From NCBI GenBank assembly GCA_017531985.1, contig JAFXJY010000017.1, forward strand, positions 29,690 to 93,689: DNA of 64,000 nucleotides. Direction: 5' to 3'. The notes under the pieces are model-generated. The model was not told the origin of the DNA and searched no databases. It was given only the letters and a program-made list of their open reading frames with translations. This document shows positions 14,980 through 55,338 of this stretch, piece after piece. Origin of the DNA: Bacteroidaceae bacterium. Lineage in GTDB: Bacteria > Bacteroidota > Bacteroidia > Bacteroidales > Barnesiellaceae_A. The position numbers and the translations under genes are program-made. Positions within the stretch are counted from its first letter, which is position 1, and every line of letters starts with the position of its first letter.

Positions 14980-14991
14980 TTGCCCAAGTAA

Positions 14992-15694
14992 GTAGGGACG
15001 CACCGTTGGTGCGTCCCTACCTCTTGCGAAAACACAGGGGCGAGGTAACCTTTTCTGCCCCTGCGAGCGTAGCGAGATAGGGGAAGTCCCCGCAGGGGGA
15101 AGGGGTTGTGACCTAACGGATGCGTTCAAGCGAACATGATCTATCACCCCTGATTTTTATTATTATTTTAACCCCTCTGTCTCGCAGAGGCTCGACATCT
15201 CCCCTATATTTTCTGACGAAAACACAGGGGCGAAAATGGTAACCCTATCAGCCTGTATACGCTATCGCTTTCCCGTCCTCCGAACGCATTGTCCGTAACC
15301 GTAGGGACGCACCACTGGTGCGTTGATGGCATAATTATATAAAAATCAATTAATATAATAACCGTACGCACCAATGGTGCGTCCCTACCTCAGGAGAAAA
15401 CACAGGGGCGAAAATGATAACAACCAATACGTCGTAGACGTATGGCTATCGAAACCCCACGATGAAGCACGCAGTGCGTAATCGTGGGGTATATGGTGAC
15501 TGGATATGCCACTACGTCGGAGACGTAGTACAGCAATAGTGGGGCATAACGTCTTCGACGTAAGGATACCACACGCACACACATCTACCCCATGTAACGC
15601 TCCGCTCACATGGGGTTTCCACTACACAACGTCTCCGACGTTGCAGCGGTGCGTCCCTACCTCAGGAGAAAATACTGGGGACGAAAATGGTTAC
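14992..15694. repeat. Field of GC-rich palindromic (REP-like) elements
   Basis: Composite unit gtagggacgcaccNNNggtgcgtccctac + ctcaggagaaaacacaggggcgaaaatggtaac. It is full at 14992..15050 and left-truncated at 15364..15421. A right half lies at 15648..15694, the tail alone at 15213..15245 and the palindrome alone at 15301..15323. At least 8 further stem-loops are present. Confidence 0.8.
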
Positions 15695-15760
15695 TTTCTT
15701 CCCAAAGATTCATGGGCAGATTGGTATAAAAAAAATTTCATCGCACTGACAGGTATTGTT

Positions 15761-16020
15761 TACCTTTGAGGTAAACCTCGAAGATACTTTCACTCGCTGC
15801 AAGAAATATTCAAGCAAACTTGATATTTCTCGCTCGTTTATGCTTACCTTTGCGGTAAACCGCGAAGATACTTTCACTCGCTGTAAGAAATATTCAAGTA
15901 AACTTGATATATCTTGCTCGTTTATGCTTACCTTTGCGGTAAACCGCGAAGATACTTTCTCTCGCTGCAAGAAATATTCAAGTAAACTTGATATTTCTCG
16001 CTCGTTTATGCGTATCTTTG
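15761..16020 (+). repeat. 84-bp tandem repeat (3 full units plus the start of a 4th), each unit beginning with a TAnnTTTG -7 promoter box
   Basis: Units start at 15761, 15845 and 15929 (TACCTTTG) and 16013 (TATCTTTG). About 90% identity between units. The last box lies 26 nt upstream of the thyA ATG. Confidence 0.9.
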
Positions 16021-16045
16021 GCAGTGACAATAAAAACAAAATAAT

Positions 16046-16840
16046 ATGAGACAATATTTAGACCTCTTGCAGCATGTTCTTGATCATGGCGTACGCAAGG
16101 ACGACCGCACCGGTACGGGTACCATCAGCACTTTCGGTTATCAGATGCGTTTCAATCTCGATGATGGCTTTCCATTGCTCACGACCAAGGCGTTGCACTT
16201 GAAGTCGATTATACACGAGCTGTTGTGGTTTTTGGCAGGTGACACCAATGTGAAGTATCTGCAAGAGAATGGTGTGCGTATATGGAATGAATGGGCTGAT
16301 GAGAATGGCGACTTGGGTCACATATACGGCTATCAGTGGCGTAAGTGGCGTGACTATCAAGGTGGTCACATCGACCAGATACAGGAGGTGGTGGATACGT
16401 TGAAGAACAACCCCGACTCGCGTCGTATCATTGTCAATGCGTGGAATGTGGCCGATCTGCCGGAAATGAAGTTGCCACCCTGCCATGCCTTTTTCCAGTT
16501 CTATGTGGCTGATGGCCGTCTCAGTCTGCAACTCTATCAGCGTAGTGCCGATATATTCTTAGGTGTGCCGTTCAATATTGCATCGTATGCCCTGTTGTTG
16601 CAGATGATGGCTCAGGTGACCGGTCTGCAAGCCGGTGATTTTGTGCATACTTTGGGCGATGCACATATCTATCTCAATCACTTAGAGCAGGTACAAGAGC
16701 AACTTCGTCGTGAGCCGCGAGCTTTGCCTCGCATGGTAATTAACCCCGAAGTCAAGTCGATATTCGATTTCAAATATTCCGATTTCCAACTGACCGACTA
16801 CGACCCGCATCCTCACATAGCAGGTGTCGTGGCGGTGTAA
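16046..16840 (+). CDS. thyA: Thymidylate synthase
   Basis: 264 aa. MRQYLDLL...DRTGTGT...; active-site region [12 protein letters not shown]; ends [10 protein letters not shown]. Confidence 0.97.
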
Positions 16841-16854
16841 ATAGCAGAATAACT

Positions 16855-17340
16855 ATGATTTCATTGATTGTAGCCATAGCCGCCAATAATGCCATAGGTC
16901 GCAGCCAAGAGTTGCTGTGCCATCTTCCCAATGACCTGAAACGCTTCAAAGCGATTACTTTGGGGCATACCATCGTGATGGGTCGTCGCACTTACGAGTC
17001 GTTGCCCAAGGGTGCATTGCCCGGGCGTACCAATGTGGTGGTAACCGGTAGTGCCGATGCAGCGTGGGAGAATGTCGAGGTGGTTCATTCGGTCGACGAG
17101 GCACTTGCCAGGGAGGAGGGTAAGGAGCTTTTCGTAATAGGAGGAGCAACACTTTATCGCCAGACCCTCGATCGTGCCGACCGCCTCTATATCACGCACA
17201 TACATCATAGTTTTGAGGATGCCGATACGTTCTTCCCCGACCTCGATTATAGCCAATGGCGAGAGATAGAGCGAGAGTCGCACGCAGCCGATGAACGTCA
17301 TCCTTATGACTATACTTTTGTGACTTACGAGCGAAAGTAA
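16855..17340 (+). CDS. folA: Dihydrofolate reductase
   Basis: 161 aa. MISLIVAIAANNAIG...LPW-type N-terminus, GRRTYESLP, VIGG motif. Immediately downstream of thyA. Confidence 0.93.
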   Translation: MISLIVAIAANNAIGRSQELLCHLPNDLKRFKAITLGHTIVMGRRTYESLPKGALPGRTNVVVTGSADAAWENVEVVHSVDEALAREEGKELFVIGGATLYRQTLDRADRLYITHIHHSFEDADTFFPDLDYSQWREIERESHAADERHPYDYTFVTYERK

Positions 17341-18108: not shown

Positions 18109-18428
18109 AGCTTTTTTCCTTTTACAACATCGTTGGTGTGTAAAAGGTTTATGCAGCTGATCGGTAGAGTCAACTTGAAAAAGGGAGAATGGAATGAAAA
18201 GGCACAAAAAAAAATTGATTGTCATCCCGACAACCAATCTTCGTTAACCTTAATTCTAATACCATGAAAAACACGATGCAAAGGTAGTGCGTTTTTGTGC
18301 TATTGTCAATAGTAGAGGGTTGCAAAGTTATTGTATTTAATAATATTTAACAAACCTCTATCCAATTCCCTTCATTTTAGTTGATTGTGATAAATAAAAT
18401 GGTGGCATAAAGAATGGATATAGTGAGT

Positions 18429-44921: not shown

Positions 44922-46766
44922 TCACTCCACCGTAACCGACTTGGCGAGGTTGCGGGGTTGGTCTACGTCTTTGCCTTTGCACACTGCAATGTGATAGGCG
45001 AGTAGTTGCAAGGGGATGGAGGCCAACAGTGGGTATAGGAAGTCGGTTGTTTCGGGTAGTTCTATGACGTAGTCGGCGATTCTCGAAATAACGTCGTCGC
45101 CCTTGATGACGAGTGCTATTACCTTGCCTTGTCGAGCCTTTATCTCTTGAATATTGCTGAGTACTTTTTCGTATAGTTTCTTGTTGGTAGCTAACACGAC
45201 GACAGGCATTTCGGCATCAATCAGGGCGATAGGGCCGTGCTTCATCTCGGCAGCAGGGTAACCCTCGGCATGGATGTATGAGATTTCTTTGAGTTTCAAT
45301 GCACCTTCGAGTGCTACGGGGTAGTTGTATCCGCGGCCTAAATAGATGAAGTTGTGTGCGTAGGTAAATGTACGCGAGAGTGATGCGATGGAGTCGTTCG
45401 ACTTTAAGATTTCTTCTATCTTGTCGGGGATGAGAAGTAGTTCTTGGAGTGCCGATTCGAGATCTTCTTGTGAGATGGTGTTGCGTTCTTTGGCTATGCA
45501 TAGGGCAAGCATGGTGAGGACGGTAACTTGTCCGGTGAAGGCCTTGGTCGAGGCTACACCTATTTCGGGTCCGACGTGTATGTAGGCACCTGTATCGGTG
45601 TTGCGAGCTATTGATGAGCCTACCGAGTTGACAATGCCATAGACGAAAGCACCTCTGTCACGAGCCAATTCGATGGCGGCTAACGTGTCGGCTGTCTCGC
45701 CCGACTGGGAGATGGCTATTACGACATCGTTGTTGTTGATAACGGGGTCGCTGTAACGGAACTCCGATGCGTAGGCAACCTCGACCGGTATGCGACAGAA
45801 GTTTTCTATCAGGTTTTTGCCTATCAGTCCGGCATGCCAAGAAGTGCCACATGCTACGATGATAAATCGATGAGCGTTGATGAGACGTTTGCCGTGGTCG
45901 ATAACCGATGAAAGTCGTATTTCGGTTCCGTCGCTGCTGATGCGGCCTCTCATGCAGTCGAGCAGGCATCGAGGTTGTTCGAAGATTTCTTTGAGCATGA
46001 AGTGCTCGTATCCTCCTTTTTCTATTGCACCGAGGTCGATGTTTATCTCGCTTACTTCATGGTCGACAAGTTCGCCCTGGATGGTGACGCATCGAAGTCC
46101 TTCGTGGCGGTTGATGATGGCTATCTCGTCGTCGTTGAGGTATATGATGCGGTGGGTGTATTCGACCAAGGGTGTGGCATCGGAGGCGAGGAAGTATTCG
46201 TTTTCGCCCAGTCCGATAGCGAGGGGACTCGACTTGCGAGCGGCGATGATTTCGTCGGGATTGTTCTTGTCGAGTACGGCAATGGCATAGGCTCCGATGA
46301 CTTGTTTTAAGGCACGCTGTACAGCCGATAGGAGATTGGACTTGTGTTCTTGTTTGTAATACTCGATAAGTTGTACGAGGACTTCGGTATCTGTCTCACT
46401 GACAAACGAGAAGCCCTTTGCGATGAGTTTCTCTTTCAGAGAGGCGTAGTTCTCAATAATACCATTGTGAATGAGAGAAAGTGTGCCGGATGATGAGAAG
46501 TGGGGATGAGCATTCTCGCGACATGGGATGCCGTGGGTAGCCCATCGGGTGTGTGCTATACCGATTGTACCTGAGTCGTCTTTATCGGTGAGGAAGGATT
46601 CTAAGTCGGCAACTTTTCCTTTTGCTTTATATACATTCAGTTCTCCATGTTCGTTAATCATAGAGACGCCGGCACTATCGTAGCCACGGTATTCAAGTCG
46701 ATGCAAGCCTTTAAGAAGAATGGGGCATGCTTGCTGATGGCCTATATATCCAACAATTCCGCACAT
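44922..46766 (-). CDS. glmS: Glutamine--fructose-6-phosphate aminotransferase (isomerizing)
   Basis: 614 aa. MCGIVGY N-terminal nucleophile, two SIS domains, C-terminus NLAKSVTVE. Confidence 0.97.
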   Translation of the reverse strand: MCGIVGYIGHQQACPILLKGLHRLEYRGYDSAGVSMINEHGELNVYKAKGKVADLESFLTDKDDSGTIGIAHTRWATHGIPCRENAHPHFSSSGTLSLIHNGIIENYASLKEKLIAKGFSFVSETDTEVLVQLIEYYKQEHKSNLLSAVQRALKQVIGAYAIAVLDKNNPDEIIAARKSSPLAIGLGENEYFLASDATPLVEYTHRIIYLNDDEIAIINRHEGLRCVTIQGELVDHEVSEINIDLGAIEKGGYEHFMLKEIFEQPRCLLDCMRGRISSDGTEIRLSSVIDHGKRLINAHRFIIVACGTSWHAGLIGKNLIENFCRIPVEVAYASEFRYSDPVINNNDVVIAISQSGETADTLAAIELARDRGAFVYGIVNSVGSSIARNTDTGAYIHVGPEIGVASTKAFTGQVTVLTMLALCIAKERNTISQEDLESALQELLLIPDKIEEILKSNDSIASLSRTFTYAHNFIYLGRGYNYPVALEGALKLKEISYIHAEGYPAAEMKHGPIALIDAEMPVVVLATNKKLYEKVLSNIQEIKARQGKVIALVIKGDDVISRIADYVIELPETTDFLYPLLASIPLQLLAYHIAVCKGKDVDQPRNLAKSVTVE

Positions 46767-46815
46767 ATTATATAGGTAGTAGATTTAGTTTCAAACTATT
46801 GTGTTCAAATTATTT

Positions 46816-46938
46816 ACAAAGATAGTGGTAAGCGAGCGAGAAATATCAAACTTGTTTGAATATTTTTCACAGCGAGCAAAAGTATCTTCGCGGTTTACTG
46901 CAAAGATAAGAATTATTGGCAAACAATTCTTATCTTTG
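46816..46938 (-). repeat. Single copy of the 84-bp promoter-bearing unit (homolog of the thyA tandem repeat), bracketed by TATCTTTG boxes and a 14-bp perfect inverted repeat
   Basis: Minus-strand TATCTTTG boxes at 46901..46908 and 46816..46823. The sequence between them is about 80% identical to the units at 15761..16012. The palindrome caaagataagaatt/aattcttatctttg spans 46901..46938. Confidence 0.8.
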
Positions 46939-46973: not shown

Positions 46974-46986
46974 GATGAATCTTTTG

Positions 46987-47061
46987 TGGGCGTTGACGGA
47001 TTCGAACCGCCGACCCTCTGCTTGTAAGGCAGATGCTCTAAACCAGCTGAGCTAAACGCCC
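46987..47061 (-). tRNA. tRNA-Val (anticodon TAC), copy 1
   Basis: Reverse complement GGGCGTTTAGCTCAGCTGGTTTAGAGCATCTGCCTTACAAGCAGAGGGTCGGCGGTTCGAATCCGTCAACGCCCA; anticodon loop CTTACAA. Confidence 0.9.
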
Positions 47062-47115
47062 TCGTAAGGAAGAGTGCCGAGGCACCCTCTGGGAATATAT
47101 AAAGTTGAATAATGG

Positions 47116-47190
47116 TGGGCGTTGACGGATTCGAACCGCCGACCCTCTGCTTGTAAGGCAGATGCTCTAAACCAGCTGAGCTAAACGCCC
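47116..47190 (-). tRNA. tRNA-Val (anticodon TAC), copy 2 (identical)
   Basis: Identical 75-nt sequence, 129-bp period. Confidence 0.9.
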
Positions 47191-47244
47191 ATTATACTTT
47201 TCGAGTGGTTTGTTTCTCTCGCATGAGAAGCCGTTTTGTCTCGG

Positions 47245-47319
47245 TGGGCGTTGACGGATTCGAACCGCCGACCCTCTGCTTGTAAGGCAGATGCTCTAAA
47301 CCAGCTGAGCTAAACGCCC
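47245..47319 (-). tRNA. tRNA-Val (anticodon TAC), copy 3 (identical)
   Basis: Identical 75-nt sequence. A minus-strand TACCTTTG box at 47344..47351 is the likely promoter. Confidence 0.9.
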
Positions 47320-49075: not shown

Positions 49076-50596
49076 ATGGACGAAGAAAAGAAAGTAAAAC
49101 GCCCCCGTATTAATGAAAGTCGCGGTGCGATGCACGAAGATTTTACCGCAAACACAGAGAAAAATGTAGAAAACGGTACTCACGATTATCAATCATCGAC
49201 TTACGGTAGTGAACGCCCCTCGTATAATGGCGAACGTCGTCACTATAACAATGGAGGCTATAACAACAATCGCAACGGTTATAATAACAATCGTTACAAT
49301 AACGGCGGTTATAACAATCGCTACAATAATAACGGTGGTTACAACAATAATCGCTACAACAATCGTTACAATAACAATAATGTCGATGGCGAAAATGCCG
49401 AAGCGGCTAATGGTTATAATCAAGAAGGTGGTTATACCGGCAACCGTGGTGGTTATAACAATAATCGCGGTGGCTATAATAACCGTGGCTACAATAACAA
49501 TCGTGGCGGCTACAACAACAACCGTTACAACAACAACGGTTATAACAATCGCTACAACAATAATGGTGGCTATAACAATAATCGCTACAACAATCGTTAC
49601 AACAATAATGCCGATGGTGAAAATGTCGAAGTAACTAACGGCTACAACCAAGAAGGTGGTTACTCCAACAATCGTGGTGGATATAACAACCGTGGCGGAT
49701 ATAATAACAATAGAAACTTCAACAATCGCGGTGGTTACAACAATAATCGTGGTGGTTATAATAACAACCGTGGTGGCTACAATAATAACAATCGTAACAA
49801 TCAACGCGGTGGATTTAACAAACGATTTACACCACGTCCACAACGCATTGAGTATGAATTGCCACCGATCGATCCTACACAACCCATCCGATTAAACAAA
49901 TTCCTTGCCAATGCCGGTATATGTTCACGTCGAGAGGCTGATGAATTTATACAAGCAGGCGAGGTGCAAGTAAATGGCACAGTTGTTACCGAACTTGGTT
50001 CGAAAATTACTCCTGCCGACATCGTAACATTCCGCGGACAAGAAGTGGGTCTTGAAAGCAAGGTGTATGTCCTACTCAACAAACCCAAAGATTGTGTGAC
50101 AACAGCCGATGATCCCCAAGGTCGTCTCACTGTGATGGATATTGTTCGCAATGCATGTTCCGAGCGTATCTATCCTGTTGGCCGACTCGACCGAAATACC
50201 ACCGGCGTGCTTTTGCTCACCAATGATGGCGATTTGGCTTCAAAATTGACACATCCGCAGTTTATTAAGAAAAAAATCTACCATGTGTGGACAGATAAGG
50301 ATGTAACCGAGGAAGATATGCAACGCATCGCCGATGGTATAGAACTTGACGATGGCAATATCCACGCCGATGCAGTAAGCTATGCCACTGAGACCGATCG
50401 TAATCAGGTAGGTATAGAGATACACTCAGGACGCAACCGTATAGTGCGTCGCATATTTGAAGCTCTTGGTTATCACGTTATAAAACTTGATCGCGTGTAC
50501 TTTGCCGGTCTTACCAAGAAAAATTTGCCTCGTGGACGTTGGCGTTATCTTACACAAGCCGAGGTAAACATGCTCATGATGGGCTCGTTCGAGTAA
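49076..50596 (+). CDS. rluB: RluB/RsuA-family pseudouridine synthase with a long N/G/R/Y low-complexity N-terminal extension
   Basis: S4 domain IRLNKFLANAGICSRREADEFI, catalytic motif GRLDRNTTGVLLLTNDG, and about 215 aa of GGYNNNR-type repeats at the N-terminus. Confidence 0.85.
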   Translation: MDEEKKVKRPRINESRGAMHEDFTANTEKNVENGTHDYQSSTYGSERPSYNGERRHYNNGGYNNNRNGYNNNRYNNGGYNNRYNNNGGYNNNRYNNRYNNNNVDGENAEAANGYNQEGGYTGNRGGYNNNRGGYNNRGYNNNRGGYNNNRYNNNGYNNRYNNNGGYNNNRYNNRYNNNADGENVEVTNGYNQEGGYSNNRGGYNNRGGYNNNRNFNNRGGYNNNRGGYNNNRGGYNNNNRNNQRGGFNKRFTPRPQRIEYELPPIDPTQPIRLNKFLANAGICSRREADEFIQAGEVQVNGTVVTELGSKITPADIVTFRGQEVGLESKVYVLLNKPKDCVTTADDPQGRLTVMDIVRNACSERIYPVGRLDRNTTGVLLLTNDGDLASKLTHPQFIKKKIYHVWTDKDVTEEDMQRIADGIELDDGNIHADAVSYATETDRNQVGIEIHSGRNRIVRRIFEALGYHVIKLDRVYFAGLTKKNLPRGRWRYLTQAEVNMLMMGSFE

Positions 50597-55210: not shown

Positions 55211-55231
55211 TATTTGTTGAAATATATTTAC

Positions 55232-55271
55232 AACACCGAGTCGCTACAATAAGTGACTCGGTGTTATTTTA
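55232..55271 (+). terminator. Rho-independent terminator of pnp
   Basis: 11-bp stem aacaccgagtc / gactcggtgtt followed by a T-rich tract. Confidence 0.75.
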
Positions 55272-55338
55272 TGGCTATAAGTTGTGTTTGGGTCACTATT
55301 TTTTGTATTTTTGCACACACATCTATCATATATTCCTA

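Follow-up and report, generated by a model that had tools for sequence, protein, structure and literature searches.

A dispersed Bacteroidales repeat, probably promoter-bearing, is amplified in tandem upstream of thyA-folA

The thyA-folA operon examined here is preceded by a three-unit tandem array. This array is probably an amplified copy of a dispersed, promoter-bearing Bacteroidales repeat that inserts at -7 boxes and whose terminal box acts as the main promoter. We propose that the unit inserts into the promoter of a host gene, at its -7 box, and generates a box-body-box arrangement in which the last box would be as far from the ATG as before. An A/T-rich block, a TTG at about -33 and, just before the box, a stretch rich in T would come from the 3' half of the body, and the gene-proximal box would become the gene's main promoter together with this element-derived upstream sequence. 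At thyA, the unit would then have been amplified by unequal recombination or slippage between units, yielding a polymorphic array of one to four units.

Architecture of the array and its unit

The window, the whole 64-kb stretch of DNA analysed, contains an array at 15760-16020 that Tandem Repeats Finder (TRF) describes with an 84-nt period, 3.1 copies, 93% matches, 0 indels and a score of 459. A TACCTTTG box opens each unit (15761, 15845 and 15929), and a TATCTTTG box closes the array, with 25 nt between this terminal box and the thyA ATG at 16046. The 84-bp triplication that the earlier note described before thyA-folA is borne out by TRF, by four phased TAnnTTTG boxes and by two hairpins in each unit.

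15760-15843, + strand: unit 1, with box TACCTTTG at 15761-15768, hairpin 1 at 15760-15787 and hairpin 2 at 15802-15830 (TRF, pattern matches and family model R1, 98.7 bits)
15844-15927, + strand: unit 2, with box at 15845-15852, hairpin 1 at 15844-15871 and hairpin 2 at 15886-15914 (TRF, pattern matches and RNA fold, z = -4.6)
15928-16011, + strand: unit 3, with box at 15929-15936, hairpin 1 at 15928-15955 and hairpin 2 at 15970-15998 (TRF, pattern matches and family model R1, 97.2 bits)
16013-16020, + strand: terminal TATCTTTG box, the putative principal -7 box of thyA-folA
16046-16840, + strand: thyA, thymidylate synthase (Pfam PF00303, E = 4.5e-129)
16855-17340, + strand: folA, dihydrofolate reductase (Pfam PF00186, E = 8.3e-61)

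The -7 motif of Bacteroidota sigma-A (sigma-ABfr) promoters, defined as TAnnTTTG (PMC7366714), is present in the four boxes of the array and in two boxes at glmS. All four array boxes match this consensus, as had been noted earlier, but a single box is unremarkable in itself, given that the window contains 63 such motifs against an expectation of 43.5 ± 6.4. It is the phasing of the boxes and their family-wide conservation that carry the weight.

The unit consists of a 75-nt body and a 9-nt copy of the box (YTAnnTTTG). An alignment of 143 units gives the consensus GTATCTTTGAGG-TAAA-CCTCGAAGATAC-TTTCG-CTCGCTGTG-AAAAATATTCAAGC-AA-GCTTGATATTT-CTCGCTCGTTTATTCG-TATCTTTG. Unit 2 folds at -23.1 kcal/mol, with z = -4.6 for the sense strand and z = -2.7 for the antisense strand. 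The two small hairpins originally predicted for each unit both fold on the sense strand, although hairpin 1 is longer than claimed: its stem has 12 bp, and throughout the family the box itself takes part by pairing with CGAAnnTA. Both-sided changes occur in all 12 pairs of this stem, and its covariation reaches 0.193, compared with 0.104 ± 0.005 after shuffling (0 of 500 as high) and 0.04-0.07 for slid partners. The GAGG/CCTC versus GCGG/CCGC difference between units had been interpreted as a compensatory change under selection. All four combinations exist among strains, and thus that pair gives no evidence of selection within the species; it is across the family that the covariation is strong. 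Hairpin 2 is partly fixed by the search pattern, and its variation was judged on copies found by the model only. Its compensatory variants include TTGAAG/CTTCA in at least five loci as well as ATACTGAAAC/GTTTCGTAT, CCAAGC/GCTTGG and TGCAAGT/ACTTGC. Moreover, an identical 31-nt insertion, ACCTGCCTTAGCACTTGGCTTGTCCAAGA, with a flanking CAAGA repeat, is located exactly in the hairpin 2 loop in three different MAGs (L047 3466-3593; L050 7474-7602; L059 3378-3502). Units with this insertion represent a subfamily common to several species.

In which form is the hairpin selected? The T.G wobble at TTTG:CGAA is fixed on the sense strand (72 of 85). With this fixed wobble excluded, well-formed hairpins lack the wobble signature of a sense RNA, containing 19 G.U cells against 35 A.C cells. 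Since G.U is rarer than A.C, sense RNA is not clearly the selected form, which is possibly single-stranded or extruded DNA, unless palindrome-preserving mutation accounts for the pattern.

The unit has no terminal inverted repeats; the ends of the body share only an inverted TAAAC pentamer, and the ends of the unit are direct repeats of the box. Nor does the family exhibit a sharp 5' terminus, as part of a further unit, either 7-8 nt or a decayed remnant, stands in front of many first units. About one-third of the units that stand first or alone have neither a 5' box nor hairpin 1 and keep hairpin 2 and the 3' box before the ATG. At four positions (L046, the first unit of L049, L102 and the first unit of L116), a GCAACGC-TTATTTC-GCGTTGC hairpin takes the place of hairpin 1 before the conserved half with hairpin 2 and the box, which suggests that the family is modular. 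In L039 (2174-2290) and L089 (3158-3274), two hairpin 2/box modules stand back to back in opposite orientation, possibly as a divergent promoter pair derived from one element.

The array was also considered as coding sequence and rejected as such: its 97-codon frame has no ATG, periods in the family range from 83 to 86 nt, and one strain's unit contains a 1-nt deletion. Spurious ORFs of 82-103 aa run across the array (window 15756-16049; L002 2711-3004; L159 531-842), and in P0001 (361 aa) a gene caller fused the array frame to ThyA. Such calls arise because 84 is divisible by 3 and one frame of the unit is stop-free.

A non-coding spacer of 780 nt (14980-15760) separates the array from a Ser/Thr kinase gene. 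It contains three copies of a 46-nt repeat (at 14998, 15366 and 15638), composed of a perfect 13-bp palindrome, GTAGGGACGCACC/GGTGCGTCCCTAC, and, further along, GGGGCGAAAA, and it also contains four small ACGTC-N3-GACGT hairpins at about 15430-15650. Among all loci fetched, the 46-nt repeat is limited to the thyA spacer of the window species. The content of this spacer and the upstream gene vary by strain (L004, L005 and L009).

A dispersed family with filled and empty sites

The unit belongs to a large family. With one genome sampled per species, at least 118 loci match one degenerate pattern fixed on the hairpin 2 core. The matches listed derive nearly all from uncultured Bacteroidales MAGs and include Bacteroidaceae, Alistipes, Barnesiella, Coprobacter, Muribaculaceae and Paramuribaculum as hosts. 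In 24 of these listed loci, two to four copies follow each other in tandem, 83-86 nt apart; when diverged neighbours are recovered by the model, about 37 of 136 arrays, roughly a quarter, contain two or more units. An ORF of at least 60 aa lies downstream of the 3' box in 109 of the 118 loci listed, at a median distance of 32 nt (interquartile range 22-51), which fits the 5' UTR lengths of Bacteroides thetaiotaomicron (median 32 nt, mode 23 nt; PMC7366714).

The downstream genes share no common theme: among the matches listed, 111 proteins fall into 96 clusters with 141 Pfam families, and the gene sets that follow units differ from genome to genome. Because units occur in many Bacteroidales genomes and precede 96 or more clusters of unrelated genes, a leader specific to thyA and glmS or a fixed regulon is ruled out, and the idea of a device dedicated to thyA/folA or to thyA/glmS is abandoned.

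Rfam searches with the array and the glmS copy returned no match at the gathering score or even at E <= 10. The literature searched on Bacteroidales repeats, mobile promoters and Bacteroides MITEs contains no description of this repeat family, which is apparently undescribed so far. Pattern scans of viral contigs and of PLSDB plasmids each gave 0 matches. One candidate phage copy, in MT839067.1, was treated as bacterial: the record is an unverified scaffold from the human gut, and the ORF downstream resembles a bacterial alpha/beta-hydrolase. No transposase or other protein family recurs near the copies in the 118 loci listed. With neither inverted termini nor a recurrent transposase, the term mobile is based on the distribution of the unit and on one pair of filled and empty sites. 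This pair is located at glmS.

46817-46909, - strand: glmS unit, with 5' box at 46908-46901, a 75-nt body and 3' box at 46824-46817
44922-46766, - strand: glmS (Pfam SIS and GATase domains); the 3' box of the unit ends 50 nt before its ATG

The glmS unit is bracketed by two TATCTTTG boxes and is matched by family model R1 at 46813-46912 on the minus strand with 99.8 bits. It is about 81-82% identical to the thyA units over approximately 98 aligned columns. In the 64-kb window, the thyA array and the glmS unit are the only significant matches to the covariance model. A weak match at 55230-55317 was discarded as a further copy because it is an ordinary terminator and promoter. The glmS unit directly follows three identical tRNA-Val(TAC) genes, arranged as a 129-nt tandem repeat on the minus strand (46986-47319), and both this repeat and the thyA array are places where several metagenome contigs end.

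In a close relative (L166, GlmS 95% identical), the spacer between tRNA-Val and glmS keeps the same 47-nt upstream flank, a single CTATCTTTG and a co-linear downstream flank that is 82% identical. At the position of that box, the window contains TTATCTTTG, the 75-nt body and CTATCTTTG, and is longer by exactly 84 nt. The 9-nt YTATCTTTG thus occurs once in the relative and twice around the body in the window, the pattern of a target-site duplication at this one site. The exact 84-nt gap between co-linear flanks indicates that the unit is a discrete insertion or deletion bounded by a duplicated -7 box. The state of the relative could represent precise deletion by box-box recombination instead of an ancestral empty site, but an outgroup (L167/L169, 87% GlmS identity) is likewise devoid of the unit.

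Four relatives whose ThyA is 92-95% identical have 0 units at thyA and a single TAnnTTTG at -29 to -33 from the ATG; the family model found no match in the thyA upstream regions of these 92-95% relatives. The terminal box of the array is located at -33, the same distance as the box of the unit-free relatives. The occurrence of the unit is patchy. Both thyA and glmS are preceded by units in the window species; in GCA_054266695.1, three stand before thyA (L159) and glmS lacks them (L166); and contig NODE_81 has the unit at glmS (L011) and lacks it at thyA (L160). Given that presence is patchy in both directions, the proposal of an older glmS copy and a younger thyA array was discarded. A metagenome scan with the unique thyA 5' flank, aimed at a 0-unit allele of the window species, gave 0 matches. 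The L160/L011 contig (ERZ1767482 NODE_81) encodes a GlmS identical to that of the window and a ThyA that is only 94% identical, next to another upstream gene, which suggests recombination around thyA or a mosaic of close lineages.

The boxes also carry a signature of their site. The variable dinucleotide of the 5' box agrees with that of the 3' box of the same locus in 25 of 29 cases, compared with 11 of 22 between loci of one genome (p = 0.012). Such within-locus agreement is expected from target duplication or from integration that depends on box homology. The hairpin 1 arm often tracks the site-specific box as well (TC/GAAGATA, TA/GAATATA and CC/GAAGGAG).

The number of units at thyA varies among strains, as the earlier note anticipated. 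In metagenome assemblies from short reads, in which tandem repeats may collapse and several contigs end inside the array, strains with identical ThyA have one unit (L004), two (L003), three (the window, L001, L005, L006 and L009) or four (L002). The strain alleles differ by several substitutions, and the one- and three-unit forms recur in independent samples. Variants such as the TAAA/AAGG loop are shuffled among array positions in different strains, and a relative with 98% ThyA identity has three units with different variants. The glmS locus has one unit in all eight informative contigs. Median identity is 90.5% within arrays and 72.9% between loci (95th percentile 85.9%), demonstrating that arrays grow by local duplication or unequal exchange rather than by repeated insertion. 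It is plausible that slippage changes the number of units and thereby tunes thyA-folA expression.

Candidate promoters and alternative readings

The terminal, gene-proximal box is most likely the main promoter, and the box under selection, because it is the best-conserved one. The 3' box is conserved at 90% or more across the 143 units. The consensus is retained in the terminal box of 19 of 23 arrays and in 80 of 92 single units, compared with 13 of 28 internal boxes (Fisher p = 0.01). Nine arrays combine a degenerate internal box with an intact terminal box, and none shows the reverse. Where a hairpin 1 arm can be recognised (72 loci), the consensus is kept by 65 of the terminal boxes and 48 of the 5'-most boxes; among discordant loci, 21 retain only the terminal consensus and four only the 5' consensus. 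Furthermore, of the 48 arrays that follow a divergently oriented gene, 35 show a sense TAnnTTTG nowhere but in the element, leaving the boxes of the element as the sole canonical candidates there.

The sequence upstream of the box is also promoter-like. In 91 non-element promoters from the same genomes, positions -42 to -36 are A/T-rich and positions -7 to -3 are T-rich, and the element matches this native profile at both the A/T-rich block and the T-rich stretch. A -33 TTTG is expected about 19-21 nt upstream of the -7 motif in sigma-ABfr promoters. The G of the element's CTTG lies at -23 from the box (22 nt before its TA), 2 nt beyond the native TTTG peak at -21, a weak signal. A small RNA in the window serves as a calibrator of the distance from box to transcription start site (TSS).

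18205-18274, - strand: FopS sRNA (Rfam, 77 bits), with a TACCTTTG box at 18286-18279

The 5' end of FopS (18274) is 5 nt past its box. Applying this offset, we infer a thyA TSS near 16025 and a 5' UTR of approximately 21 nt, where about 20-35 nt is typical, and starts from the upstream boxes would fall in the TAAA loop of hairpin 1. A PepSY-like gene follows closely downstream of FopS.

The upstream boxes in the window all still match the consensus and may fire. It had been suggested that thyA is read from four phased promoters, and in an extended form of this idea slippage would tune thyA-folA, possibly under antifolate selection in livestock. We regard this as possible, though on the doubtful side. 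Beyond the perfect TAnnTTTG of all four window boxes, the internal boxes share the element-derived upstream context of the terminal box, the 5'-most box retains its native upstream promoter region, and the copy number is one to four at thyA in comparison with a fixed single unit in 8 of 8 contigs at glmS. However, polymorphism is expected of any tandem repeat, and throughout the family decay is far more frequent in internal and 5' boxes than in terminal ones, so that the family does not generally need those upstream boxes. The single box of unit-free relatives, kept at the distance of the terminal box, also argues against this view. The four boxes thus stand as consensus matches, but four equally firing promoters are doubtful because the family preferentially keeps the terminal one.

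Alternatively, the unit could be a purely selfish repeat that targets -7 boxes. The boxes would then be target duplications, and the gene would be read from its displaced native 5' box through a structured leader. The 9-nt direct repeat at the filled glmS site, the agreement of 5' and 3' boxes at each site, the two covarying hairpins, which recall REP, PATE and Correia-type elements, and the native upstream sequence still joined to the 5' box are all consistent with this scenario. It is nevertheless unlikely: the terminal box is better conserved than the 5' box (65 versus 48 of 72), approximately one-third of first or single units have lost the 5' box and hairpin 1 and yet kept hairpin 2 and the 3' box, and the body mimics native upstream promoter features.

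A bolder version of the insertion model, to which we give little credence, would make the unit a mobile element that finds resident -7 boxes by complementarity or homology, duplicates the box, replaces the upstream promoter region and forms head-to-tail arrays. It would move as a single-stranded DNA hairpin, possibly through a circular intermediate of box plus body, and the length of the thyA-folA array would act as a population dial for antifolate tolerance. This targeting idea leans on the hairpin 1 arm, CGAAnnTA, matching the site-specific dinucleotide of the box.

A structured cis-regulatory RNA (a leader, a riboswitch-like element or an sRNA-binding site) of a regulon that includes thyA and glmS is highly improbable. 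Compensatory changes in two hairpins, better folding of the sense strand (z = -4.6 versus -2.7) and the T.G wobble fixed in 72 of 85 would suit an RNA. The lack of any Rfam match up to E <= 10, the absence of a common function among the downstream genes, the patchy presence among near relatives and, apart from the fixed wobble, the excess of A.C (35) over sense G.U (19) cells would not. Moreover, a transcript that starts from the unit's own box would begin in the hairpin 1 loop and therefore could not form hairpin 1.

Equally hard to sustain is the view of the palindromes as operators for a dimeric transcription factor with a large regulon: the dyad is near-perfect to its centre (innermost CG 91, UA 42) and the centre of hairpin 2 lies some 28 nt before the box, around -41 from the TSS, where a class-II activator would bind, but the stems change by compensatory substitution (TTGAAG/CTTCA, CCAAGC/GCTTGG and others) without conserving their sequence, the 31-nt insertion at the palindrome centre in three MAGs would part the half-sites, about 50 nt of non-palindromic sequence is also conserved, indicating common descent and not convergent sites, and gene sets differ between genomes. 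The covarying hairpins and the loop insertion together favour a stem-loop over a dimeric operator on duplex DNA.

Relation to known repeats and significance

Several families of short bacterial repeats resemble the unit in part. Pneumococcal BOX elements are modular intergenic stem-loop repeats with a variable number of tandem subunits and reported effects on the expression of neighbouring genes. The unit is likewise a small modular intergenic repeat with stem-loops and a variable tandem number, but BOX differs in sequence and host, is organised as boxA-boxB(n)-boxC, has no tie to a promoter hexamer or octamer and does not duplicate a box on insertion. In REP/BIME-REPIN sequences and palindromes derived from IS200/IS605, the hairpins act as single-stranded DNA, and insertion is sequence-specific through a short target. 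These elements resemble the unit in being short and non-autonomous, with covarying hairpins, clusters and no adjacent transposase (for REPIN, see PMC3575422). They do not duplicate their target and usually reside at 3' ends or between convergent genes, whereas the unit lies 5' of genes, is flanked by a 9-nt direct repeat and, in the 118 loci listed, has no linked RAYT or TnpA. The direct repeat at the filled glmS site sets the unit apart from REP/IS200 elements in their defining feature, and its termini, which are not inverted, lack the defining feature of MITEs. Insertion sequences of Bacteroides activate cfiA, erm, nim and similar genes through outward promoters (reviewed in PMC9330008). They resemble the unit as mobile DNA that brings a TAnnTTTG-type promoter to a downstream gene, but they are 1-2 kb long and encode transposases, in contrast to the 84-nt non-coding unit.

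Among the nearest concepts are also putative mobile promoters (PMPs), similar non-coding sequences (at least 80% over at least 50 nt) upstream of unrelated genes (Matus-Garcia, Nijveen and van Passel 2012; summarised in PMC3575422). The thyA and glmS units exhibit this degree of similarity in front of non-paralogous genes in one genome. PMPs share with our family the spread within a genome and across genera and families, the lack of a known mobilisation mechanism and, for most, the lack of an Rfam match (PMC3575422). PMP is an operational category and not a family, whereas the unit has a defined box-hairpin 1-hairpin 2-box architecture; the unit also departs from that category in its unit-sized filled and empty sites, its tandem arrays and its Bacteroidota -7 box.

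Correia elements of Neisseria (approximately 100-150 bp) are gene-adjacent, carry promoters at their ends (PMC2649163; Siddique et al. 2011, as cited in PMC3575422), are transcribed to hairpin-forming RNA and affect neighbouring genes (PMC2649163). Like the unit, they are dispersed next to genes, bear promoters at their ends (putatively so in the unit) and vary in presence among strains. Unlike the unit, they have terminal inverted repeats, a TA target duplication and no head-to-tail arrays, whereas the unit has direct terminal repeats formed by the -7 box, two internal hairpins, a strict gene-ward orientation and tandem amplification.

If the preferred reading of an inserted, promoter-bearing repeat holds, one common and portable promoter module drives many genes in Bacteroidaceae, Rikenellaceae, Barnesiellaceae and Muribaculaceae, with turnover among close relatives and the capacity for tandem amplification. 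It would constitute a concrete and tractable example of mobile promoters in a phylum that departs from the E. coli paradigm of promoter logic, would provide a natural compact and possibly strong promoter part for Bacteroides engineering, and would account for assemblies that repeatedly break, and ORFs that are wrongly called, in front of such genes. The precise targeting of -7 boxes and the site-matched hairpin arm would point to an as yet undescribed insertion mechanism. In addition, a promoter module of variable copy number before the trimethoprim target would be one way, amenable to testing, for gut bacteria of livestock to come to differ in drug tolerance.

A further repeat region of the window is located in a coding sequence. 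A pseudouridine synthase gene at 49076-50596 (S4 and PseudoU_synth_2 domains) encodes an N-terminal repeat region of approximately 230 residues, which is rich in Gly, Tyr, Asn and Arg and is built from degenerate 15-21-nt repeats of the GGTGGTTATAACAAC... type.
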